From: a virus
Virus record (IMG/VR): IMGVR_UViG_3300044568_003751
Coordinates: 25,312 to 89,311 of that record
DNA: 64,000 nucleotides
Direction: 5' to 3' (one strand)
Notes under the pieces: model-generated
The model's input: only the letters and a program-made list of their open reading frames with translations
The model's database searches: none
Told to the model about the DNA's origin: nothing
In this document: positions 25,215-42,593 of the stretch, in pieces
How the letters are laid out: every line of letters begins with the position of its first letter
Numbering within the stretch: the first letter of the stretch is position 1
Made by a program: the position numbers and the translations under genes

Positions 25215-25442
25215 AAATGCTTTGACTAGTCCTGTAAGCCCAATTGCCAGTGCAACAATGTTCACCAACAACTGTGGCTTATTTGCAACACGAATTGACC
25301 ATGCCATGAACAGTATAGTACCCAGGAAAAATGCAAGGATATTGTAGGGATAGGCCGCAGGACCCACGGCGTTGAGACTGTGGCCTGCTATGATAAACAC
25401 TGCTCCGGTCCACTGTAGTATTTCGTTGATTTCTAATTTCAT
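25209..25442 (-). CDS. Small three-helix membrane protein
   Basis: Hydrophobic; TTGACC/TATAAT promoter directly upstream, so leaderless. Confidence 0.7.
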   Translation of the reverse strand: MKLEINEILQWTGAVFIIAGHSLNAVGPAAYPYNILAFFLGTILFMAWSIRVANKPQLLVNIVALAIGLTGLVKAFG

Positions 25443-29320: not shown

Positions 29321-30323
29321 TCCATTGCTGTGCCAGTAGTTCTGTTTTCTTTTTTGTATACCATATGAACTGCATACTACCTACTTTACGAGCAATTTTG
29401 AGATATTGCTCATTAGCGTAGAAACAGTTTATGTATTGCTTCATAAATTGTTTATACGATGCATAATTGTCATGGTCGATTACTTGATTTATATTGTGCC
29501 ACATGTAGTTTTCAAACCCTGCAAAGTCAAAGAACGCACTGGTTTTTGCGGTTTGTGTGAATGCACTGTCTTTGGGAGAAAAGATTTGATTTTTAGTTGC
29601 AGCATAAAACCACCAACGTGCCTCTAACACCGTTTCAATAGGTCGTTGAGCTAATGCAAAATATTCTGTGCAAAATTCTTGCAGTGACGGATCTGTTATT
29701 ATAATCTGCCAGGGCTTGTGTAGAACTTGGTAACCTAGATTATCAAAGAAACTTTCGTCAAGACTGGCTGTGAACTCGTCGCCACCGTGGCCGTTAATCA
29801 TAATACCATCAAAAACTGTTTCTAAATACACATCACCGCTGATGTCTAGCATTTCTAATGTGGGATAATTTTTTTGTAGATATTCAAAGAATTCGCGATT
29901 TTCGTATACACTGAATGGGGAGTATAACACACGCAATTGATCTAGGTGTGTGGCATGTTTTAAGAATCCTGCTACCAAACAGGTTGAGTCAATGCCGCCA
30001 CTCCAGCACAGGTTAAGTTTTTCTCCTGTGCCGATGTAGTTGTCGACTCTTTGTGCCATGACTTCATCAAAGGTTTGTTTTGCTACAGGGGCTTGCCAAG
30101 GCCGCTGTACTGCAAACGCAAAAGGTCCAGGAACAGTTTGTGTTCTATCTACAGGCATACCGGCTGGATTGCTTGAAAATATAGAGTTTAACTCAATCAG
30201 ATTATTGTAACGATCAAAACCTTCAACCTTGGCAAGACTGCCTATCAACTGATACGGTTTGTTTTGCCAGTCTAGTATTCTATAAAAAAAACTAGGATTA
30301 ATTGTTGATAACAATGGTTTCAT
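29205..30323 (-). CDS. PP-loop protein, asparagine-synthetase-like synthetase domain
   Basis: WSGGIDST and NGHGGDE. Confidence 0.7.
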   Translation of the reverse strand: MKPLLSTINPSFFYRILDWQNKPYQLIGSLAKVEGFDRYNNLIELNSIFSSNPAGMPVDRTQTVPGPFAFAVQRPWQAPVAKQTFDEVMAQRVDNYIGTGEKLNLCWSGGIDSTCLVAGFLKHATHLDQLRVLYSPFSVYENREFFEYLQKNYPTLEMLDISGDVYLETVFDGIMINGHGGDEFTASLDESFFDNLGYQVLHKPWQIIITDPSLQEFCTEYFALAQRPIETVLEARWWFYAATKNQIFSPKDSAFTQTAKTSAFFDFAGFENYMWHNINQVIDHDNYASYKQFMKQYINCFYANEQYLKIARKVGSMQFIWYTKKKTELLAQQWIAYLEDGTGIRTPNLPLFSKCEFQNTYGDSLEYLFNYH

Positions 30324-30700: not shown

Positions 30701-30774
30701 TGGTGCTCCCACCGGGTAACGATCCTGGGTTTCTACATTACCAATGTAGTGTAATGCCTTTATACTATAGGAGC
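30701..30774 (-). tRNA. tRNA-Thr(GGU)
   Basis: Cloverleaf, CTACA-TTGGTAA-TGTAG, encoded CCA. Confidence 0.92.
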
Positions 30775-30777
30775 AAC

Positions 30778-30809
30778 TGGAGCGGAATACCAGAATCGAA
30801 CTGGTCACC
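30778..30809 (-). pseudogene. 3' fragment of a tRNA-Gly (T arm, acceptor 3' strand, CCA)
   Basis: GGTGACCAGTTCGATTCTGGTATTCCGCTCCA; no D or anticodon arm. Confidence 0.8.
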
Positions 30810-30854
30810 TAAATCAAGTAATTTTGTTATGAATTTTTTCCAACAGGAATAGTA

Positions 30855-31706
30855 TTATGTAACTCTTGAAGTGCTTACAAGACAAGTTCGATGCATAACA
30901 CGTGGACAATCATCTGGCGTGCCAGCGGCCAGATGCATCAATGCACGATTATCCCAAAACACAATATCAAACGGTTTCCATTTGTGTCGGTAAACATATC
31001 TGGGGTTGGTAGTGTGCTCAAATAAAAATTGCAGGAGTTCCTGGCCTTCTTTTTCGGGCAACCCGTCGATTCTAGAAGTAAAATGTGGGTTTACCCATAA
31101 AGTTTTGAATCCACCTACTGGATGTTGTTGTACAATAGATTGCAATCTAGGAGGATTCAACTCCCGTTGTTCATCAGAAAGACTTTGTCGCCAAGGATTC
31201 CGAGATTGCAATTCGTCATATTTAAGATAGTACACATGCTCGGCTTGTAGGCATTGCAATTGTTGTTTCATGTCTGCACTGAGATCATCATATGCGGCTT
31301 GTTGATCAGCAAACAGGGTATCACCACCTTGAGAAGGCAATAACTGTGCATGTAAAAATGTTCCATAGCCAGGATACTCTTTCCAACTGCTGTCTGCATG
31401 CCAGTAGAGACCGGCATCACGCATACCCAGTGGCCGGCCATCTTTGACAATATTGGATAATACCAACACTTCGGGTTGACTTGGCAAAGGGAAATCAAGC
31501 ACTGGATGATTGTTAGATGCTAATGTTCCAAAGTTTTTGCAAAAAAAGACAAGTTTATCAGGGGTAATTTGTTGATCCCGGAATATCAACAGATGTTCCT
31601 TGAGATGCGTTGATTTTAAATCAGCAATTGCTTGACTACTTAGCCGCTGAGAACAATCAAGATCTGTAACTTCTGCGCCAAATGTTGCTAGTGCCGTAAT
31701 TTTCAT
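30855..31706 (-). CDS. TauD/TfdA family Fe(II)/2-oxoglutarate dioxygenase
   Basis: WHAD, GGDTLFAD, WDNR..MH, R.MHR. Confidence 0.95.
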   Translation of the reverse strand: MKITALATFGAEVTDLDCSQRLSSQAIADLKSTHLKEHLLIFRDQQITPDKLVFFCKNFGTLASNNHPVLDFPLPSQPEVLVLSNIVKDGRPLGMRDAGLYWHADSSWKEYPGYGTFLHAQLLPSQGGDTLFADQQAAYDDLSADMKQQLQCLQAEHVYYLKYDELQSRNPWRQSLSDEQRELNPPRLQSIVQQHPVGGFKTLWVNPHFTSRIDGLPEKEGQELLQFLFEHTTNPRYVYRHKWKPFDIVFWDNRALMHLAAGTPDDCPRVMHRTCLVSTSRVT

Positions 31707-31745
31707 GGTGCAATTACTTAGTTGACACCAAAGTTAGTCAGATAA

Positions 31746-32069
31746 TTATTCAGGATTAACTTGGGCACTAATAATCATTGGAGGATATTCGAGTCCTTGA
31801 CCTAAATTTTCTGATAGAACAACATCAACCCAGGCTTGTGCAGTGGCAAGATCGGGCCAAGTACGACTGATATGTCTTGGTGTGCCTTCAGTCACACTTT
31901 CAACTACAGATTCATTTACAAGGTTATCACTTGAACATCCGTGCGTTTTTGTAAATCTTTCTAAAATTGATTCGAAATTCATTTTGTAAGCAGACATTGC
32001 TGTTACAAATTCGCTTTCAGATAAGCGATGATGGGCAAATCCCCCGAAAACTACAGTAGTTGTAGGCAT
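31746..32069 (-). CDS. Hypothetical protein
   Basis: Start MPTTT with GGAG RBS and TAAATA at 32093-32098. Confidence 0.65.
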   Translation of the reverse strand: MPTTTVVFGGFAHHRLSESEFVTAMSAYKMNFESILERFTKTHGCSSDNLVNESVVESVTEGTPRHISRTWPDLATAQAWVDVVLSENLGQGLEYPPMIISAQVNPE

Positions 32070-32153
32070 ATAAATCTCCAATTCACGTCGAGTATTTATG
32101 CTGGACTTGTCAATAATATTCAAGAGTTATTGTAGTATAAAATTACAAATATT

Positions 32154-32227
32154 TGGAGCGGGATACGAGAATCGAACTCGTCACTAAACCTTGGCAAGAT
32201 TTCGAGATACCACTTCACCAATCCCGC
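32154..32227 (-). tRNA. tRNA-Gly(GCC)
   Basis: Cloverleaf, TTGCCAA loop, CCA. Confidence 0.92.
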
Positions 32228-32239
32228 ATTTGAGAAAAA

Positions 32240-32290
32240 CCCTGTCGTGTGAGCCAACTTCCGGGAGTGGGCAACTCACAGAGGACAGGG
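32240..32290 (-). ncRNA. Long imperfect hairpin of unknown function (possible terminator)
   Basis: CCCTGTC/GACAGGG and TGTGAG/CTCACA stems followed by U5 on -. Confidence 0.45.
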
Positions 32291-32308
32291 CCGTGTTGTT
32301 ATTACTTG

Positions 32309-32782
32309 TTAGGCTGCACGTAGATCTTTGAATCTATCTGCCGCATATGAAGCCGCAAACGCATCGGGTTTGACAAAAGGTATAACATTACACACACCTT
32401 TGATGTAGCCTATGGCCTGTGATATTACACAACTTGATCCGTGTATTTCGTCTGGGTTGATGTCCAAGTGAACTTCAACTTCACGTCCTTCTAGTACTTC
32501 GGCCAGTTTCAAGTACAATTCGCTCACTTTGTACACTTCGGTCATCAACCTTAAACTGGGACGACTGGCTCGTTGATCCCAGTCGCGTTCACGTTGCACT
32601 TCACCAAACAGTTTGCAACCGTTGTTGCCATTGATGTGTACCACAATGGCCAACACATAGTCAGCATGCCAGGCACCGTTGATTTTTACACGCTCTGAAT
32701 CGCAACCAAGATAGATTCGAGTTTCGGGTGTTTGCGCCCGTATAAACTGTGCCACTTGGTCAATGTCTAGTTTTTTCATCAT
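32309..32782 (-). CDS. RNase H-like YkuK (DUF458) family protein
   Basis: IYLGCDS, RLMTEV, EVHLDIN, KPDAFAASYAADR. Confidence 0.85.
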   Translation of the reverse strand: MMKKLDIDQVAQFIRAQTPETRIYLGCDSERVKINGAWHADYVLAIVVHINGNNGCKLFGEVQRERDWDQRASRPSLRLMTEVYKVSELYLKLAEVLEGREVEVHLDINPDEIHGSSCVISQAIGYIKGVCNVIPFVKPDAFAASYAADRFKDLRAA

Positions 32783-32823
32783 CGTCTTTCTATTTAACTC
32801 AAAAACTGTTACAGTTTTATTAA

Positions 32824-32904
32824 TGGTACCCCGGGTGGGAGTTGAACCCACATTTGAATTTCTCCTTTTGAGAGAGATGACTTTGCCAATTTGTCTACCG
32901 GGGC
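32824..32904 (-). tRNA. tRNA-Leu(CAA)
   Basis: CTCAAAA loop, CCA. Confidence 0.9.
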
Positions 32905-32907
32905 AAT

Positions 32908-32990
32908 TGGTACGAGTAGCCGGACTTGAACCGGCAAGCCTAAGCGGAAGATTTTAAATCTTCTGAGTTTACCAATTTCTCCATACTCGC
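32908..32990 (-). tRNA. tRNA-Leu(UAA)
   Basis: GAAGA-TTTAAAA-TCTTC, long variable arm, CCA. Confidence 0.93.
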
Positions 32991-32994
32991 TGAA

Positions 32995-33071
32995 TGGTGC
33001 CCCAAGAGAGACTCGAACTCTCAAAATTTGGCTTCTAAGACCAACACGTATACCAATTCCGTCATCGGGGC
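32995..33071 (-). tRNA. tRNA-Leu(UAG), short variable loop
   Basis: TTGGT-CTTAGAA-GCCAA; 77 nt. Confidence 0.9.
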
Positions 33072-33236
33072 AAATAAATATCATTATGATTACAATTGAA
33101 CATGCTATGCAAACGTTATTCCAAATATCTGGTACACAGCCGTATGTGCCAGAAACTCATGCTACCACCACTAGACAATTCACTGTGAATGCCATGCTAG
33201 AGCCGCTGAATCTAAAGTTCAAACTAGATCCCTTGT

Positions 33237-33312
33237 TGGTGCCTCCTCCAGGTTCCGACCCTGGTTCCCCGGATTTTCAATCCGGTGCTATGACCACATC
33301 AGCTAAAGAGGC
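33237..33312 (-). tRNA. tRNA-Phe(GAA)
   Basis: CCGGA-TTGAAAA-TCCGG; atypical T loop GTCGGAA. Confidence 0.9.
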
Positions 33313-33317
33313 GTAAT

Positions 33318-33391
33318 TGGTACCTCGTGACAGAATCGAACTGCCGTAACCGCCGTGTAAAGACGGAGTTCTACCATTAAACTAACGAGGC
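33318..33391 (-). tRNA. tRNA-Val(UAC)
   Basis: TTTACAC loop, CCA. Confidence 0.93.
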
Positions 33392-33396
33392 GTATT

Positions 33397-33488
33397 TGGC
33401 GGAAGACGGAGGAGTCGAACCCCATCCGATTTCTCGGAACCTGGTTTTCAAGGCCAGTCGCGGCACCAACCCCGCTGCATCATCTTCC
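33397..33488 (-). tRNA. tRNA-Ser(UGA), atypical D region
   Basis: CTTGAAA loop, long variable arm, GCCA end. Confidence 0.85.
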
Positions 33489-33504
33489 TTATTGAATTAA
33501 AAAA

Positions 33505-33680
33505 AGTACTACCCGATGTTTAAGGGTATAGAACATCCTTTCGGGTAGCCCTTGTCCCTCCAGCAACATAAAACGACTGTGACTAGCAGTCTACCGCGGC
33601 TTTCGCCCGTTCAGCGGCGCTGGATCTAATAAGGTCCCTGGTAGTTGGGCCCATAGTCAATGAGTTTTTAACACACTTTT
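33505..33680 (-). ncRNA. Unannotated structured RNA between tRNA-Cys and tRNA-Ser
   Basis: Stems TCCAGC/GCTGGA, CCGC/GCGG, GGC-GAAA-GCC, GACTG/CAGTC, CTACCCGA/TCGGGTAG. Confidence 0.55.
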
Positions 33681-33688
33681 TCTAAACT

Positions 33689-33766
33689 TGGAGTAGCGGG
33701 TGAGATTCGAACTCACGGCTTTACGGATTTGCAATCCGTTCCCTTGGACCACTCGGGCACCGCTAC
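33689..33766 (-). tRNA. tRNA-Cys(GCA)
   Basis: ACGGA-TTGCAAA-TCCGT, U73, CCA. Confidence 0.93.
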
Positions 33767-33772
33767 ATAAAT

Positions 33773-33925
33773 TTAACTTGGCACAATATGAGGAATGTAA
33801 GGAACGGCTCGAGGTCCGCCGTACATCTGCTCAAACAACTTCTTGGCTTCCTGCGGTGTGCCCGCATAGATACGCTTTTTTTCTTCGCCCTGTGGTGTGC
33901 GAACTGTTGTTTCATACATTGGCAT
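33773..33925 (-). CDS. Small protein (50 aa, MPMYETTVRTPQGEEKKRIYA...)
   Basis: Read by eye; AGGAGA RBS. Confidence 0.7.
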   Translation of the reverse strand: MPMYETTVRTPQGEEKKRIYAGTPQEAKKLFEQMYGGPRAVPYIPHIVPS

Positions 33926-33939
33926 ATTATTCTCCTAAT

Positions 33940-34016
33940 TGGTCCGAGTAGTAGGATTCAAACCTACGACCCTCTGGTCCCAAACCAGATGCGCTATCAG
34001 GCTGCGCTATACTCGG
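33940..34016 (-). tRNA. tRNA-Pro(UGG)
   Basis: TCTGG-TTTGGGA-CCAGA. Confidence 0.93.
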
Positions 34017-34022
34017 GTAATT

Positions 34023-34250
34023 TTATTTCTTGGCCGACAACGGCTCTTGTGACTTTTCTATCTCTGATGTCTCGGCAAATCCTGCATTGCCACCAAAACC
34101 TTTCCAGCTGTCTTCTGTAAAAATTCTAACAGGTCGCCAGAAGCGGGCAATGATGTTGTTGATCACCACAATTCCAATTGCCACAGCAATAAAGCCTAAT
34201 GCTGTCAAAACACTACCGGCTAAAAATACCGCCGCTTGATCCATGTCCAT
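34023..34250 (-). CDS. Small membrane protein
   Basis: One long hydrophobic helix; AAGGA RBS. Confidence 0.7.
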   Translation of the reverse strand: MDMDQAAVFLAGSVLTALGFIAVAIGIVVINNIIARFWRPVRIFTEDSWKGFGGNAGFAETSEIEKSQEPLSAKK

Positions 34251-34267
34251 AAGTTTTTCCTTAATTT

Positions 34268-34341
34268 TGGAGCGGGATGAGAGAATCGAACTCTCAACTC
34301 TAACTTGGAAGGATAGCGTTTTGCCACTAAACTAATCCCGC
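34268..34341 (-). tRNA. tRNA-Gly(UCC)
   Basis: CTTCCAA loop, CCA. Confidence 0.92.
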
Positions 34342-34387
34342 GTTGAACATGTAGTATACAATATTTTTTGGATATTGTAAAGACATT

Positions 34388-34461
34388 TGGTTCCCTGTCG
34401 AGGTAACGATCCTCGGTCTCTCGATTATCAGTCGAGTGCTCTACCTTTGAGCTAACGGGGA
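34388..34461 (-). tRNA. tRNA-Ile(GAU)
   Basis: CTCGA-CTGATAA-TCGAG; T loop ATCGTTA. Confidence 0.92.
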
Positions 34462-34467
34462 AAATAC

Positions 34468-34541
34468 TGGCACGGGAACTAGGGCTCGAACCTAGAATGA
34501 CAGAGTCAAAGTCTGTAGTGTTACCATTACACTATTCCCGA
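34468..34541 (-). tRNA. tRNA-Gln(UUG)
   Basis: ACAGA-CTTTGAC-TCTGT. Confidence 0.93.
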
Positions 34542-34553
34542 ACAAAAACTTTA

Positions 34554-34628
34554 TGGTGGATGAGAGTAGAGTCGAACTACCACTTGACTCCGTATGAAGG
34601 AGGCGCACTACCATTATGCTACTCATCC
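34554..34628 (-). tRNA. tRNA with CAU anticodon (elongator Met or Ile2)
   Basis: CTCC-TTCATAC-GGAG, CCA. Confidence 0.85.
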
Positions 34629-34630
34629 AT

Positions 34631-34707
34631 TGGGGTGCATGATGGGATTCGAACCCACGCATATCGGAATCACAATCCGAGGTCTTGACCGCTTGACGAC
34701 ACGCACC
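34631..34707 (-). tRNA. tRNA-His(GUG)
   Basis: TTGTGAT loop, G-1:C73. Confidence 0.93.
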
Positions 34708-34741
34708 ATATAGAAACACACCAAGCAAATATGTTTTCATA

Positions 34742-34816
34742 TGGTAGGGGCACAGAGAATCGAACTCTGATTTACGGGTTAAAAGCCCGCTACTTTGGCC
34801 GTTAAGTTATACCCCC
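34742..34816 (-). tRNA. tRNA-Lys(UUU)
   Basis: GCGGG-CTTTTAA-CCCGT. Confidence 0.93.
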
Positions 34817-34868
34817 ACTAATCTTATCACTCTTGTCACAGTCTATGGGACTCTCCTTTTAAAATATT

Positions 34869-34943
34869 TGGTACCGCTGGAAGGAATCAAACCTCCATCC
34901 CCACGTTCGTAGCATGGTGTCCTGTTCATTGAACGACAGCGAT
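34869..34943 (-). tRNA. tRNA-Arg(ACG)
   Basis: CCATG-CTACGAA-CGTGG. Confidence 0.88.
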
Positions 34944-34948
34944 ATGAT

Positions 34949-35022
34949 TGGTGCCCCATGAGAGAATCGAACTCCCGTACCCGGATTACAAAACCGGTGT
35001 AATGCCATTATACTAATAGGGC
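34949..35022 (-). tRNA. tRNA-Thr(UGU)
   Basis: TTTGTAA loop, CCA. Confidence 0.93.
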
Positions 35023-35028
35023 AAATTT

Positions 35029-35116
35029 TGGCGGAGTATGTAGGAATCGAACCTACTCGCCCATTTCTGAACGACAGTTTAGCAAACTGTTGCCTTAACC
35101 GGTCGGCCAATACTCC
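35029..35116 (-). tRNA. tRNA-Ser(GCU)
   Basis: TTGCTAA loop, long variable arm. Confidence 0.93.
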
Positions 35117-35124
35117 ATACTTAC

Positions 35125-35203
35125 TGGCTCCGCATTTCGGAATCGGACCGAACTAACCAGGGATTAACAGTCCCGCCCATGCACCTTGCTCGGGTTCTGC
35201 GGA
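35125..35203 (-). tRNA. tRNA-Asn(GUU)
   Basis: GGGA-CTGTTAA-TCCC, GCCA end. Confidence 0.88.
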
Positions 35204-35244
35204 ATAAAACTACTTAGCAGGCACTCATGCCTGCCTTAAAAACA

Positions 35245-35330
35245 TGGTGGAGAGTCAGGGATTCGAACCCCGTATACCGTAAGGTGGAAGATTTACAGTC
35301 TCCTGAAGTCACCAATGCTTCTCACTCTCC
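35245..35330 (-). tRNA. tRNA-Tyr(GUA)
   Basis: CTGTAAA loop, long variable arm. Confidence 0.93.
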
Positions 35331-35334
35331 AATT

Positions 35335-35409
35335 TGGTGGACCGTCCCGGGTTCGAACCGGGGACTGAGGCTTGCAAAGCCACTGTGTTCCCAACTATAC
35401 CAACAGCCC
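35335..35409 (-). tRNA. tRNA-Ala(UGC)
   Basis: TTTGCAA loop, G3:U70. Confidence 0.93.
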
Positions 35410-35415
35410 ATAATT

Positions 35416-35489
35416 TGGCGACTCGTGATGGAATCGAACCACCGCTAGAAGTTTTGGAGACTTCCGCACTGCCACTATACTAACGAGCC
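35416..35489 (-). tRNA. tRNA-Trp(CCA)
   Basis: CTCCAAA loop, GCCA end. Confidence 0.93.
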
Positions 35490-35649
35490 ACGTCACACTG
35501 TTGCCAATGTGTGTATCAAAACACACTCTAAGAATATGCTTTGATACGCTCGGATTTTTTTTGTGTACAAGAACACAAGCCATCCCCGAGGCCGCCCATT
35601 TGCAGTTTTGAGTGTTGCAGGCTCGCGTTGCCATTGCACTTGATAACGC

Positions 35650-35697
35650 TTATTGCACGTTATCGTGAATCCACTTCCAGTACTCTTCTGTTGTCAT
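35650..35697 (-). CDS. 15-aa mini-ORF MTTEEYWKWIHDNVQ
   Basis: AAGGAGA RBS; lies between the attenuator terminator and tRNA-Trp. Confidence 0.5.
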   Translation of the reverse strand: MTTEEYWKWIHDNVQ

Positions 35698-35710
35698 CGC
35701 TGTTCTCCTT

Positions 35711-35745
35711 AAAAAGAAAAACCCTGGAGTTTTTAGTTCCAGGGT
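35711..35745 (-). terminator. Intrinsic terminator of putative attenuator 1
   Basis: ACCCTGGA-loop-TCCAGGGT followed by TTTTCTTTTT. Confidence 0.85.
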
Positions 35746-35774
35746 CCTTGGCTTAGATACGATTGTATACTACG

Positions 35775-35888
35775 TTAAGACCCTGTGTCTCCTAGAATGA
35801 TTGCTGTTGGGCGACCATAGGCATGTGACCAGGCTGGTGCCTGATTAAACATTGTCTTGGTTAGCAGTGAACAGATTTGTGTTTTCAT
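35775..35888 (-). CDS. Putative leader peptide 1 (37 aa, MKTQICSLLTKTMFNQAPAWSHAYGRPTAIILGDTGS)
   Basis: ATG 7 nt after a consensus -10; 3' end complementary to the terminator 5' arm. Confidence 0.6.
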   Translation of the reverse strand: MKTQICSLLTKTMFNQAPAWSHAYGRPTAIILGDTGS

Positions 35889-35895
35889 AGTATCA

Positions 35896-35924
35896 ATTAT
35901 AGTTTATTTACCTTTGTGTGTCAA
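35896..35924 (-). promoter_or_regulatory. Consensus sigma70 promoter heading the main tRNA operon
   Basis: TTGACA-N17-TATAAT; spacer also contains TAAATA. Confidence 0.85.
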
Positions 35925-35965
35925 TCACTTTGGCAAACTTTTTTGTTGTATTTACGCAACAGATT

Positions 35966-37096
35966 TTATTCACCTATACAGAAGGGTTTGCTGTAGATTG
36001 GTGCACCAACATCTTTTCCAATTATGCTGTTAACGGGATTGGTACTGTTTTCTATCAAATGATTACAAAAGTTTTTTTCTAACAAAAGATTTTTTATGCC
36101 TTTTACAAAAAGATCGGCCACAACATTGTCCTTCTTTAGCAAGGCATCTAGGCCAGTATCAAATGTTCGGGAAAGATCACCGTCAATGGTGTCCATTGTT
36201 ATTACTACTGATTCAAATTTATTTTCTTGTATTTTTTGTGTGAAACTGCCACCTGATACTATCTCTTTTTGTCTAGACAAATTTTTTGCCCAAGAAATAT
36301 AAGCGGCATTAGAAGAAATTCTAAATTTTGCGCCAGTAGGATCTAGACTAGCATTGTATGCATTTGCATTCATACGAAGTTTAAGCATTTTTTTAATCAT
36401 ATGACTTTGTTTGAGTGCCAAGACTGGGGCAGTAAAAAAACATTCAATATTCTCAAAATTCATTGTACTCAGCAAGGTTCTTGCATCATGACATGAATAA
36501 TATTTGTTATCTTTCTTGAATACTCTAGGTTGCTCGTGTCCAGTAATCAAACACCAAGTTGATCCACCAAACTGGTCGGCACAGTAATCCCACATGACAG
36601 AGTCCATGGTTCCCATGGCAAATTTAGGAATCATAGAAATATTTTTAAAAATCCAATCTTCTCCGGTTACAATTTGTTGTTTAGCCGCAGGATCAAATCG
36701 TTCTTTGACAGTGATTTTGGTCAAGGGATCATGATGATTATTTTTCAGCCAATCCACATACTGTGAATTGTACCAGGGCTCGTACTGATCATTTACCCAG
36801 ATAACAATTTCATCAATATGCAAATTATTACGTTTGAACACTTCGTAGATGGTCTGACTGTCAGTGCCACCGCTCCAGGACAGCATAACGTGTTGATATT
36901 TGTTTCTTAAATTACATGCATGGCGATCCATCAGTTGATCAAGAGACTCGGTGGGTTCTTGCAACCAATTCAGTTGATCATTCTGTTGATCATGACAAAC
37001 AAACTCAATGGGTTTCTTGCTTACAAATGCCTCATATTTGGCAAGCAGGTGATTGAAAATTATTTTATTGTTGACACGAAAGTAGATGGAAGTCAT
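35966..37096 (-). CDS. PP-loop protein of unknown function
   Basis: LRNKY..LSWSGGTDS..FKRNNLHIDEI, GHEQPR; paralog of 43574..44689. Confidence 0.7.
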   Translation of the reverse strand: MTSIYFRVNNKIIFNHLLAKYEAFVSKKPIEFVCHDQQNDQLNWLQEPTESLDQLMDRHACNLRNKYQHVMLSWSGGTDSQTIYEVFKRNNLHIDEIVIWVNDQYEPWYNSQYVDWLKNNHHDPLTKITVKERFDPAAKQQIVTGEDWIFKNISMIPKFAMGTMDSVMWDYCADQFGGSTWCLITGHEQPRVFKKDNKYYSCHDARTLLSTMNFENIECFFTAPVLALKQSHMIKKMLKLRMNANAYNASLDPTGAKFRISSNAAYISWAKNLSRQKEIVSGGSFTQKIQENKFESVVITMDTIDGDLSRTFDTGLDALLKKDNVVADLFVKGIKNLLLEKNFCNHLIENSTNPVNSIIGKDVGAPIYSKPFCIGE

Positions 37097-38110: not shown

Positions 38111-38114
38111 GCAC

Positions 38115-38143
38115 AAAAAAGAAAACCCTCCGAAGTGGAGGGT
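38115..38143 (-). terminator. Intrinsic terminator of putative attenuator 2
   Basis: ACCCTCC-ACTTC-GGAGGGT followed by TTTCTTTTTT. Confidence 0.88.
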
Positions 38144-38165
38144 CTTTGTAAGTAGTACTTTCGTA

Positions 38166-38243
38166 TTACAGGCAAAGTCCCCAATGGCAATCCCACTCAT
38201 GTTCTGAGCGAAGGGTTGTGATGATTGCAGTTGTTTGGTTCAT
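38166..38243 (-). CDS. Putative leader peptide 2 (25 aa, MNQTTAIITTLRSEHEWDCHWGLCL)
   Basis: ATG 6 nt after TATAAT; 3' end complementary to the terminator 5' arm. Confidence 0.6.
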   Translation of the reverse strand: MNQTTAIITTLRSEHEWDCHWGLCL

Positions 38244-38249
38244 AAGTGT

Positions 38250-38278
38250 ATTATATATGACAAGTGATTGAAAGTCAA
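38250..38278 (-). promoter_or_regulatory. Sigma70 promoter heading the Glu/Asp/Met operon
   Basis: TTGACT-N17-TATAAT. Confidence 0.8.
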
Positions 38279-41135: not shown

Positions 41136-41188
41136 GTAAGGTTAAAGTTGCTCCGAGCAAATATTTATATTGGCAATTTTTGTTTATA

Positions 41189-41210
41189 AAAATAGGCTCC
41201 GGGGAGCCTA
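41189..41210 (-). terminator. Intrinsic terminator after tmRNA
   Basis: TAGGCTCC-CC-GGAGCCTA followed by U tract on -. Confidence 0.8.
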
Positions 41211-41212
41211 CC

Positions 41213-41501
41213 TGGTGATTTCTGTTACGAGGTATTTCCTACCCTAGGCTACAATCAAGCGGCCAATGCGAACTGTGAGTCGTTTGCGTTTACTTTTGTT
41301 TAGTTTTTACGACTATCGCTGTCGTGCTGTCCACTCTGTTACTCTTTGCCCTGTCGAAACTATGCAGGCCCGGCATAAAAACACAATACCAAAGTAAATT
41401 TACACGGAATACCAAAGTAAATTTATTATGCTTTTATGGTGGACCTGGGGGGATTCGCACCCCCGTCCAGAACACTTTTCTCTCGGCTTCATACAGCAAT
41501 A
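41213..41501 (-). ncRNA. ssrA: Circularly permuted (two-piece) tmRNA, tag (A)ANDSQFALAA
   Basis: Acceptor piece ..GGGGGTGCGAATCCCCCCAGGTCCACCA (ends 41437) precedes the coding piece GGGCCTG..TTCGAC (starts 41371); tag at 41255-41287. Confidence 0.92.
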
Positions 41502-41543
41502 ACTTACATTATACATTTGTATAACGCTGTTGTCTATTTATTC

Positions 41544-42593
41544 TTACATATTGGCAAAATAATTCTTGATTTCGCCTTGTCTTCTGATATCAACAGTTAT
41601 ACAATGCAAGCCGCCATCCCAAAATCCTCTGGTGCGGAATGGTAGTACGTGAACATTAAATCCATGTTTCTCCAGTTGTTCAAAAACATTTTGATCGCTA
41701 CCTATCACCAAAATATTTTTTTCATCTACTATCAAACAGTTTACTTCAAAGAATGTTTCGGTGTAATTTCCTATCCATTCTTTAGCATGTTCCAAAACAA
41801 AATTGTTGAAATTTGGACTCATTGGTAAATTTGGAACATACCAGCGCCCATTACCAGAATTGGGAAACGTTGCTGCCAGCAATGCGGCATGATTCTTGAA
41901 TTCGGGTTTTGCTACACTGATGAAATCCCAACCTGGAAAATTGTCTTTATAGTATTCAAAATAAGCAGTGACCAACAACAACCCGGGACGTAACACAGCA
42001 AATCCTGCATCACAGTGTCCACCTTGGGTGAGCATGTGACATTTATGATTTGGCCATAGATGTGGTACGTGTTTTTGAAATTCTAACAGGCGTTCTTGTG
42101 CATCTACATTCCAGTCAAATCCAGTATCCAAGAAAAAATCTTGCCCCAATTTGACTGCATTTGCACCAATGAGATTCAACCTACAAGGATTTTTTATAAC
42201 CCTTGACTCCGGGTCATTGGTATATTCCTCCAGCAAATGTCTCCAAGGAAAATTTTCTTTTAATCTTTCATCCAGCCAAGTGTCCACTACCATGGTATTG
42301 CCAAATGTTAGAAAACTATCTCGAGGGCATATTTCAGGTTTGAACAGCATTCCGTCAGGAGAAGAAAAATAATCTTCTCTGCGATCCGAATACACAGGGC
42401 GCCGAACCTTGACTCCCAGTTGTTCCAGTTTGTTGTGTATGATTTGGAGATCTTCTCGGGTCCACTCGATGATTGTTTTTAATACATCTCTATAGTTTAC
42501 ATCCACGTGGTCAAAGAACTCTGGTGGATATACATCTCCCAACCAAACTTCTTCTAATTTTGTAAAACTATCAAATGACTTGATTAACGGCAT
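41544..42593 (-). CDS. Amidinotransferase, second paralog
   Basis: LEEVWLG, PRD, GHCD, FEVN, WDGGLHCIT.DIRR. Confidence 0.85.
   Translation of the reverse strand: MPLIKSFDSFTKLEEVWLGDVYPPEFFDHVDVNYRDVLKTIIEWTREDLQIIHNKLEQLGVKVRRPVYSDRREDYFSSPDGMLFKPEICPRDSFLTFGNTMVVDTWLDERLKENFPWRHLLEEYTNDPESRVIKNPCRLNLIGANAVKLGQDFFLDTGFDWNVDAQERLLEFQKHVPHLWPNHKCHMLTQGGHCDAGFAVLRPGLLLVTAYFEYYKDNFPGWDFISVAKPEFKNHAALLAATFPNSGNGRWYVPNLPMSPNFNNFVLEHAKEWIGNYTETFFEVNCLIVDEKNILVIGSDQNVFEQLEKHGFNVHVLPFRTRGFWDGGLHCITVDIRRQGEIKNYFANM

Follow-up and report, generated by a model that had tools for sequence, protein, structure and literature searches.

A candidate leader-peptide transcription attenuator in front of the main tRNA operon of a large uncultured phage

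How and why phages carry and control tRNA genes is an old open question, and it is raised by a locus in a 64,000-nt stretch of viral DNA (hereafter the window) that corresponds to positions 25,312 to 89,311 of IMG/VR virus record IMGVR_UViG_3300044568_003751. This record is 89,311 bases long with a CheckV completeness of 26%, so that the window represents only part of the DNA of a large uncultured phage. On the minus strand of the window a long array of tRNA genes is preceded by a short open reading frame (ORF) that lies between a promoter and an intrinsic terminator, and the question is what such an arrangement does to transcription of the genes behind it. Our reading, to which we assign a probability of roughly 70%, is that this element is a ribosome-dependent leader-peptide transcription attenuator that gates the main tRNA operon of the phage. 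Slow translation would then probably lead the phage to transcribe its tRNA genes more. This reading is carried by the sequence features of the element, by their conservation in relatives, by covariation of two mutually exclusive RNA helices and by the recurrent presence of tRNA genes downstream.

An initial annotation of the locus, made from the DNA letters alone, had reported a perfect TTGACA-N17-TATAAT promoter with an ATG 7 nt behind it, followed by a 37-codon ORF in which 18 amino acids occur and Val and Glu are missing. Both descriptions were confirmed (Table 1). The promoter is also the top-scoring promoter-like site between positions 30000 and 40000. When promoter and start codon are searched for together as TTGAC-N18-TANAAT-N7-ATG, the leader promoter is the sole match in the window without a mismatch, and allowing up to one mismatch yields 2 matches where 0.32 are expected. 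Because the ATG lies so close behind the -10 element of a promoter with a full 12/12 score, the mRNA is predicted to be leaderless, with transcription starting at or within a few bases of the ATG. Nowhere in the window's leader ORF is a single codon repeated in a run.

The last codons of this ORF can pair with a downstream segment to form an antiterminator helix, termed P1, of 9 bp (CAGGGUCUU:AGGACCCUG; eight Watson-Crick pairs and one U.G), as the initial annotation had described. The intrinsic terminator is composed of ACCCUGGA (35745-35738), the loop ACUAAAAAC, UCCAGGGU (35728-35721) and the U-rich tract UUUUCUUUUU (35720-35711). Since P1 and the terminator both need positions 35745-35740, the two helices are mutually exclusive. 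Folding of 35890-35700 reflects this choice, with the minimum-energy structure being the antiterminator and the centroid being the terminator. The z-score of this fold is -2.99, and none of 200 shuffled sequences folds as well. A general terminator scan missed the attenuator terminator because that scan considers loops of 3-8 nt and the loop here has 9. No curated family in Rfam 15 matches the attenuator at gathering scores, T-box and known leaders included, and relaxing the threshold to E up to 10 over 35400-36000 gave chance-level matches only. As a separate observation, the terminator loop (35729-35737 in the window) is unusually conserved throughout the family described below, reading mostly ACUAAAAAC, ACUAAACAC or AUUAAAAAC (mostly YUAAAMA), and this conservation persists in a scan that leaves the loop free.

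Table 1. Features of the putative attenuator, its surroundings and its second copy in the window.
Feature	Position	Strand	Description
Sigma-70-type promoter	35896..35924	-	TTGACA 35924-35919, 17-nt spacer, TATAAT 35901-35896; 12/12
Leader ORF (translation predicted)	35775..35888	-	37 codons + TAA (35777-35775); ATG 35888-35886, 7 nt past the -10
Antiterminator P1, 5' arm	35777..35785	-	CAGGGUCUU; last codons and first base of TAA (its last U)
Antiterminator P1, 3' arm	35740..35748	-	AGGACCCUG; overlaps terminator 5' arm at 35745-35740
Small hairpin P2 inside P1	35754..35772	-	From predicted fold of 35890-35700
Intrinsic terminator	35711..35745	-	8-bp G+C-rich stem, 9-nt loop, U4CU5
AAGGAG site and 15-codon ORF	35650..35709	-	AAGGAG 35709-35704; ORF MTTEEYWKWIHDNVQ 35697-35650; directly after terminator
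Conserved structured RNA (element 2, ~150 nt)	35494..35640	-	z -4.42; between attenuator and tRNA-Trp
Array of 22 tRNA genes	30701..35489	-	tRNA-Trp to tRNA-Thr; ARAGORN, Rfam
Second, shorter attenuator (candidate)	38112..38278	-	TTGACT-N17-TATAAT 38278-38250, ATG 38243, 25-codon ORF to 38166

Relatives of this element were collected by several routes. Among cultured phages, a blastn comparison of 35400-36100 with 50,697 phage records matched the tRNA-Trp part only (15 records, at most 12% coverage) and the 45-nt terminator region gave chance-level matches only (E 0.8-9); no cultured relative was found. The closest relative is an IMG/VR locus (L002; L numbers denote individual loci) with an identical layout and 82% identity in the 376-aa protein encoded upstream. 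The exact 27-base terminator is present in 11 further contigs, all of which carry tRNA arrays and whose leaders are otherwise very different. Degenerate scans found at least 120 loci when the loop was left free and 38 loci when the stem was left free. A third route, anchored on the promoter and a double ATG alone, brought in members with quite different terminators. Two sets were derived from these searches. The first contains 85 distinct loci among the matches listed from three scans (exact terminator, loop-free and stem-free) and was selected on two criteria alone, the terminator pattern and a GGGTYY motif that precedes it by 22-75 nt. The second contains 92 distinct members returned by a detector that was run over all loci and that defines members by promoter, ORF and terminator criteria. 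Promoter and ORF statistics of the 92-member set are partly circular, and the non-circular counts are those of the 85-locus set. In bacterial and archaeal genomes the terminator pattern occurs at at least 120 loci, most of which are ordinary terminators, and among the matches listed only 2 are family-like, L300 (in a contig binned as Haliscomenobacter) and L371. By these sequence criteria the putative attenuator is a member of a large family in uncultured phage contigs. Sequencing runs with related sequence hold small shares of it (at most 0.19), as contigs; a few short contigs of relatives with 90-99% likeness occur there, from which neither ends nor levels are readable and whose libraries may contain DNA.

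The position of the leader ORF, which the initial annotation had singled out as a check, is strongly conserved. An ATG-initiated ORF of at least 25 codons, with its stop 12-45 nt before the terminator motif GACCC, is present in 85/85 loci against 10.2 ± 2.9 when the upstream part is shuffled (200 trials, maximum 23). These loci were picked regardless of promoter, and 61/85 have a promoter of at least 10/12 located 5-11 nt before the in-frame leader ATG. Nearly all of these strong promoters (60/61) have a 17-nt spacer, and the gap from the -10 element to the ATG is 6-7 nt in 41/61. We additionally inspected 14 loci, most of them without a near promoter, and several (L035, L040, L047, L048 and L064 included) have a 5' untranslated region of about 50 nt that contains a hairpin and a Shine-Dalgarno-like stretch, with the promoter located about 50 nt further upstream. 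Lineages that are apparently not leaderless have thus acquired a putative ribosome-binding site, as is expected of a translated ORF, which argues for translation of the leader. Within the 92-member set the ORF starts with ATGATG in 54 leaders and ends in TAA in 70, TAG in 22 and TGA in none. The leader peptides align as one family with conserved near-invariant Trp and N-S-I/D motifs, and five of them searched against PHROG and Pfam at E up to 1 matched no family. A GGGUCC motif is read in two different frames across subfamilies, as G-S or as R-V-R, and therefore appears to be constrained as RNA.

Covariation of both helices was also observed, as the initial annotation had suggested looking for, and it was obtained on structure-blind MAFFT alignments, one of 61 sequences (A1) and one of 25 sequences (A2). 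Pairs were counted for P1, for an inner helix P1b and for the terminator; MAFFT did not align P2 across subfamilies, and this hairpin was assessed by folding each sequence against shuffles. On A1 the P1 pairing is formed in 85.0% of cells versus 53-56% when one partner is slid by one column, its covariation score is reached by 0/500 shuffles, and RNAalifold chooses P1 unaided. For example, the pair of columns 19 and 75 is present as CG in 35 sequences, as UA in 19 and as UG in 4. On A2 the combined P1 and P1b helices are paired in 84.7% of cells versus 52-59% after sliding, with 6/12 pairs changed on both sides (4/5 in P1b) and a covariation score found in 0/500 shuffles. The terminator on A2 is paired in 97.0% of cells versus 53-67% after sliding, 3/8 of its pairs have changed on both sides and again none of 500 shuffles attains its score. 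Columns 71 and 72 of A2 are common to both helices, and they change together with their P1 partners (6 and 5) as well as with their terminator partners (90 and 89). Among members found through the promoter alone the shared segment varies widely, for example AACCCCAGG (which has CCUGGGG as a partner) or GGCCUCGG, and still pairs both ways. Examples of such three-way agreement are CCUGGGG : AACCCCAGG : CCUGGGGU and GGGGUCUUGG : CCAAGGCCUC. Additionally, the closest relative L002 has a half-compensatory change that converts the U.G pair of the window's P1 into U-A. In the 92-member set the best P1 helix of each member is on average 8.5 bp long, and its mean score is 8.0 versus 4.5 for shuffled sequences, with p at or below 0.05 in 75/92. 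The stretch between the P1 arms folds better than its shuffles (mean z -2.2; 83% of 66 members below -1). The aligned sequences thus indicate that both alternative structures are under selection, and two exclusive helices of this kind are the signature of a switch.

If ribosomes operate this switch, then the leader stop codon should have a defined location relative to the two helices. The stop is located 21-35 nt before GACCC in 66 leaders and 20-32 nt before the terminator stem in the 92 members, and the 5' arm of P1 begins either 8-12 nt before the stop, as in the window, or 20-33 nt before it. Given these positions, a terminating ribosome would cover the 5' arm of P1 and would not cover the terminator. 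Such a ribosome was modelled by holding positions -13 to +14 around the stop (about 28 nt) unpaired, with the terminator counted when at least 80% of it formed in the minimum-energy fold. In this model the window element switches from antiterminator (terminator 0% formed in the free RNA) to terminator (100% formed with the stop masked), and across the family the terminator is folded in 31/92 free RNAs and in 76/92 RNAs masked at the stop. When the mask is placed upstream of the stop, these counts are 38/92 (45 nt upstream) and 32/92 (60 nt upstream). This equilibrium treatment of a masked RNA is crude and some members deviate from it. Nevertheless, geometry and predicted folding both fit a model where a ribosome at the end of the ORF masks the antiterminator while a ribosome that stalls earlier leaves it free. 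The initial annotation had likened the element to the 2:3 versus 3:4 logic of the trp and his attenuators. Exclusive helices and the flip upon masking the stop bear that likeness out, while the upstream pairing of the 1:2 type was not shown.

What lies behind the switch is, in the great majority of cases, tRNA genes. The initial annotation had counted about 24 such genes downstream, which ARAGORN corrects to 22 on the same strand (Table 1), and no promoter-like site of at least 10/12 is present between the terminator and the first of them, tRNA-Trp. Among 74 relatives for which this could be evaluated, 63 have a same-strand tRNA gene no further than 600 nt downstream, and the count rises to 69 at a limit of 1000 nt and to 73 at 2000 nt. 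Furthermore, no promoter-like site of at least 10/12 separates the terminator from the first tRNA gene in 50 of 71 members.

From these features the following course of events can be proposed. Host RNA polymerase would be recruited by the near-consensus promoter and, as the spacing implies, begin its transcript at the ATG or a few bases from it, and a ribosome would load on the 5'-terminal AUG and trail the polymerase through the 37 codons. A ribosome that arrives at the stop in time would cover CAGGGUCUU, which would leave GGACCCUGG to pair downstream as the terminator, and transcription would stop at 35720-35711. If the ribosome is late, CAGGGUCUU would pair with AGGACCCUG first and the terminator stem would be cut to 2 bp set back from the U-tract. 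Lateness could be caused by slow decoding of any of the many codons, by poor initiation or by absence of translation. Polymerase that reads through would transcribe the 15-codon ORF, then element 2 and then the 22 tRNA genes. The outcome would be negative feedback, with ample usable tRNA giving fast translation of the leader and consequently less transcription of tRNA genes. Since no upstream protector helix of the 1:2 type was shown, untranslated RNA is predicted to read through by default. The natural trigger could be depletion of host tRNAs or their cleavage by anticodon nucleases, the link to nucleases being speculation.

The codons of the leaders provide information on what such a switch may read. 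The 79 long leaders of the family (33-53 codons) contain all 20 amino acids in 27 cases, 19 in 20 cases, 18 in 26 cases and fewer in 6. When one leader is taken from each of 36 clusters formed at 60% identity, the mean number of distinct amino acids is 18.83 against 16.65 ± 0.23 expected from same-length windows of this phage's proteins (3000 draws, maximum 17.47), and all 20 amino acids are used in 12/36 clusters against 0.58 expected. Trp is present in 78/79 long leaders, even where the operon has no tRNA-Trp, and this near-invariance is accounted for by the long leaders sampling nearly all amino acids. Because they do so, the switch most likely reads overall decoding speed. The codons located 10-24 nt before P1 also match the first four tRNAs of the operon in 59/205 cases versus 38.6 ± 4.7 when leaders and operons are re-paired (41 clusters; 0/5000 permutations). 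Codons at and after P1 have no such excess (63/352 against 59.8, p 0.33). Considered per amino acid in 35 clusters, this match is strongest for Tyr (counts 10/2/5/18, odds ratio 18, p 0.0007), with Cys at p 0.03 and Asp at p 0.055.

A second and shorter copy of the element in the window (Table 1) bears on the same question. Its P1 is GGGGACUUUG:CAAAGACCC, its terminator spans 38146-38122 and it is located upstream of tRNA-Glu and tRNA-Asp genes. The leader of this copy reads Glu-x-Glu-x-Asp just before the antiterminator arm. All 17 leaders of this short type for which the operon could be evaluated have Glu and Asp codons before P1 and tRNA-Glu in the operon. Where a short-type leader also has a Tyr codon before P1, tRNA-Tyr is present in the operon in 13/13 evaluable cases, and among the four that have no such codon, the window's included, tRNA-Tyr is present only in the L447 operon.

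Two further ways of understanding the signal can be considered, both of which keep the attenuator. The first would have each tRNA operon of large uncultured phages set by the decoding speed of a leader spelled with nearly all 20 amino acids or with those matched to its operon, a sort of tRNA census that we put forward only tentatively. If true, the main arrays would have leaders that include nearly all 20 amino acids and the Glu, Asp and Tyr operons would have leaders for their own tRNAs, and the result would be tRNA homeostasis in the phage together with an automatic answer to depletion of host tRNAs, anticodon-nuclease cleavage included. The second, a variant of the attenuator reading rather than a full rival, is that each leader reads the supply of the particular tRNAs encoded behind it and not general stress. 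The match of Glu, Asp and often Tyr codons to tRNA-Glu, tRNA-Asp and tRNA-Tyr in the short type speaks for this variant, as do the excess of operon-matched codons before P1 over permuted pairings, the odds ratio for Tyr and the lack of Glu in the window's main leader, with tRNA-Glu residing in the other operon. However, long leaders use nearly every amino acid whatever their operon contains, the near-invariant Trp included. The window's main leader has Asn and Asp codons for which its operon has no tRNA and has no Val even though tRNA-Val is present. L447 breaks the Tyr rule, and shared descent inflates the statistics. We regard codon-specific sensing as possible but less likely than not.

A number of observations weigh against the attenuator or against how its signal is understood. 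The start at 35888, the end at 35720-35711 and the presence of ribosomes on the ORF are predictions from sequence. In the masked folding, 31/92 free leaders form the terminator anyway and 15/92 leaders masked at the stop fail to form it; for the window itself, the terminator likewise forms with a mask 30 or 60 nt ahead of the stop, and of the upstream masks only the one at 45 nt keeps the antiterminator. Promoter-like sites of at least 10/12 occur between the terminator and the first tRNA gene in 21/71 members. Each member of the short type carries a promoter-like site some 12 nt past its terminator; in the window's second copy this site is TAGACC-N17-TACAAT (9/12). Read-through may therefore not be the sole source of tRNA transcripts. 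Additionally, no minus-strand terminator was seen between the upstream gene and the attenuator promoter, and transcripts from upstream may therefore enter the leader. The suggestion in the initial annotation that the leader samples the whole tRNA pool, which the family as a whole supports, gets no significant backing from the 18 amino acids of the window's leader taken alone (p 0.16). Codon usage in this leader is ordinary, with an index of 0.74 versus 0.75 ± 0.05 in 36-codon windows of phage genes. Regarding the codon-tRNA match, p lies between 0.076 and less than 0.001 when permutation is confined to groups, and with coarse groupings p values of 0.01-0.12 are also obtained for the control region. 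This weakening under within-subfamily permutation indicates that shared descent contributes to the match. In the per-amino-acid test only Tyr survives correction. Finally, purifying selection of moderate strength acts on the peptide itself (pN/pS 0.35, from 85 pairs that are 70-97% identical), which may point to a function of its own.

The last point leads to an alternative where the locus is an ordinary small phage gene that has its own promoter and terminator, with the peptide as its product and P1 as a non-regulatory pairing. Such a gene would explain purifying selection, the conserved Trp and N-S-I/D motifs and the promoter-like sites that follow the terminator in some members. It would not explain why relatives with very different sequences retain, with three-way covariation, a helix by which the gene would destroy its own terminator, why the distance between stop and terminator is fixed or why tRNA genes follow within 1 kb in 69/74 members. 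The amino-acid diversity is also unusually high for a folded or functional peptide of such size, and no protein family was matched. We therefore consider this alternative unlikely, while the peptide or the terminated RNA may have a further function alongside attenuation. Similarly improbable is a non-ribosomal switch operated by a protein, a tRNA or a small molecule, or a terminated RNA of about 178 nt acting in trans as a small RNA, for which the ORF would be incidental: the conserved terminator loop would suit a binding site or loop contact and attenuator-derived small RNAs can have their own function (PMC6614838), but at every locus of the 85-locus set the ORF is open, its start coincides with the predicted 5' end or follows a Shine-Dalgarno-like stretch and its end has a fixed location with respect to the helices, Rfam has no matching family (T-box included), and a role in trans would not exclude attenuation.

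The attenuator reading places this element next to several known systems. The trpL, hisL, leuL, thrL, pheL and ilv leaders are leader-peptide transcription attenuators of amino-acid operons. Like the element described here, attenuators of the trp/his type have a short upstream ORF and a terminator whose 5' arm is common to an antiterminator, with the position of the ribosome deciding which helix forms. However, they control biosynthetic genes rather than phage tRNA genes, and their leaders have a run of one regulatory codon where here there is none and the long leaders use nearly all amino acids. They also differ in that here the start is predicted to be leaderless and read-through is expected in the absence of translation. 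Upstream-ORF attenuators that sense ribosome-targeting antibiotics, known from Term-seq and from resistance genes, act as general translation-stress sensors. In these, as proposed here, slowing of the ribosome from any cause flips a terminator to read-through, but they respond to drugs and control bacterial resistance genes whereas the output here would be phage tRNA supply. T-box riboswitches likewise report tRNA status through a terminator/antiterminator choice, but do so by direct binding of uncharged tRNA without any ORF.

Closer to the predicted leaderless start are the polycysteine leaderless ORFs of mycobacteria (10.1101/834739) and the leaderless leader peptides of Deinococcus deserti (PMC4007540). 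In these, an ORF that begins at a 5'-terminal AUG controls the genes behind it, as is proposed here, but the systems are bacterial, respond to a single amino acid, control metabolic genes and are not reported for tRNA genes or phages. A different parallel is the trn operon of Anabaena sp. PCC 7120, a long tRNA array that according to PMC8421152 and PMC10272220 is silent until induced by translational stress, with the repressor TrcR binding direct repeats over the -10 element and the start site. Both there and here an accessory tRNA array would be turned on when translation is impaired, but the Anabaena array is located on a cellular plasmid and is controlled by a repressor, in contrast to a phage array with a proposed attenuator. 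The word stems "attenuat" and "leader peptide" have no occurrence in the main texts of PMC8421152 and PMC10272220. Full-text literature searches gave related work on leader-peptide attenuation of amino-acid operons (PMC3082878 and PMC6614838) but nothing that describes such an attenuator for tRNA genes or within a tRNA cluster of a phage, which agrees with the initial annotation having known of no phage example. The mechanism itself is classical; what is new in print, as far as these searches reach, is its target, its occurrence in a phage, a start that is mostly leaderless and a leader that would read many codons.

If the attenuator reading is true, phage tRNA supply would be regulated by demand instead of being simply expressed, and classical attenuation would come to cover tRNA genes, phages and leaders in which many codons rather than one are read. 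The element is about 215 nt long, self-contained and would rely on host polymerase and ribosomes, so that it could serve as a compact sensor of translation capacity.

Two further features, which the initial annotation did not include, are present between the terminator and the first tRNA gene. One is the 15-codon ORF with a strong ribosome-binding site (Table 1), which would be translated on read-through transcripts only. Its peptide MTTEEYWKWIHDNVQ is identical in L012 despite several synonymous differences and has two residues changed in L002, and in other relatives an ORF of 50-60 amino acids takes its place. The other is the structured RNA that we term element 2, of which there are 23 distinct copies in relatives that usually begin right after the terminator and end a few bases before a tRNA. 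An alignment of 22 copies contains covarying helices, and the helix flanking GGAUGA...GUGAAAAAU has compensatory changes. Additional features of element 2 are an invariant AAAYGGGCGG, a GGC-AACGNGA-GCC hairpin and a 3' hairpin with a variable insertion. Element 2 has no match in Rfam.

Unusual codons in the window's leader were also considered as a candidate feature and rejected, as the usage index is within the range of phage genes; A-ending codons make up 15/36 of this leader versus 28% in phage genes, which is not convincing.

Elsewhere in the window, the minus strand at 41164-41550 encodes a two-piece (permuted) tmRNA of the betaproteobacterial type (Rfam beta_tmRNA, 138.9 bits) with the tag ANDSQFALAA, which is also present in relative L013. 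The beta-type tmRNA hints at a betaproteobacterial host. Just upstream of the attenuator, many relatives have a tRNA-Met gene 55-85 nt before the leader ATG. Between the stop codon of the upstream gene and the -35 element the window has a minus-strand hairpin at 35944-35961, UGUUG-CGUAAAUA-CAACA, that is followed by an A-run. Possible roles for this hairpin are those of an operator or a processing site, or it may mark where the upstream unit ends, and relatives have a hairpin with an AUAAAUA-type loop at the same site.

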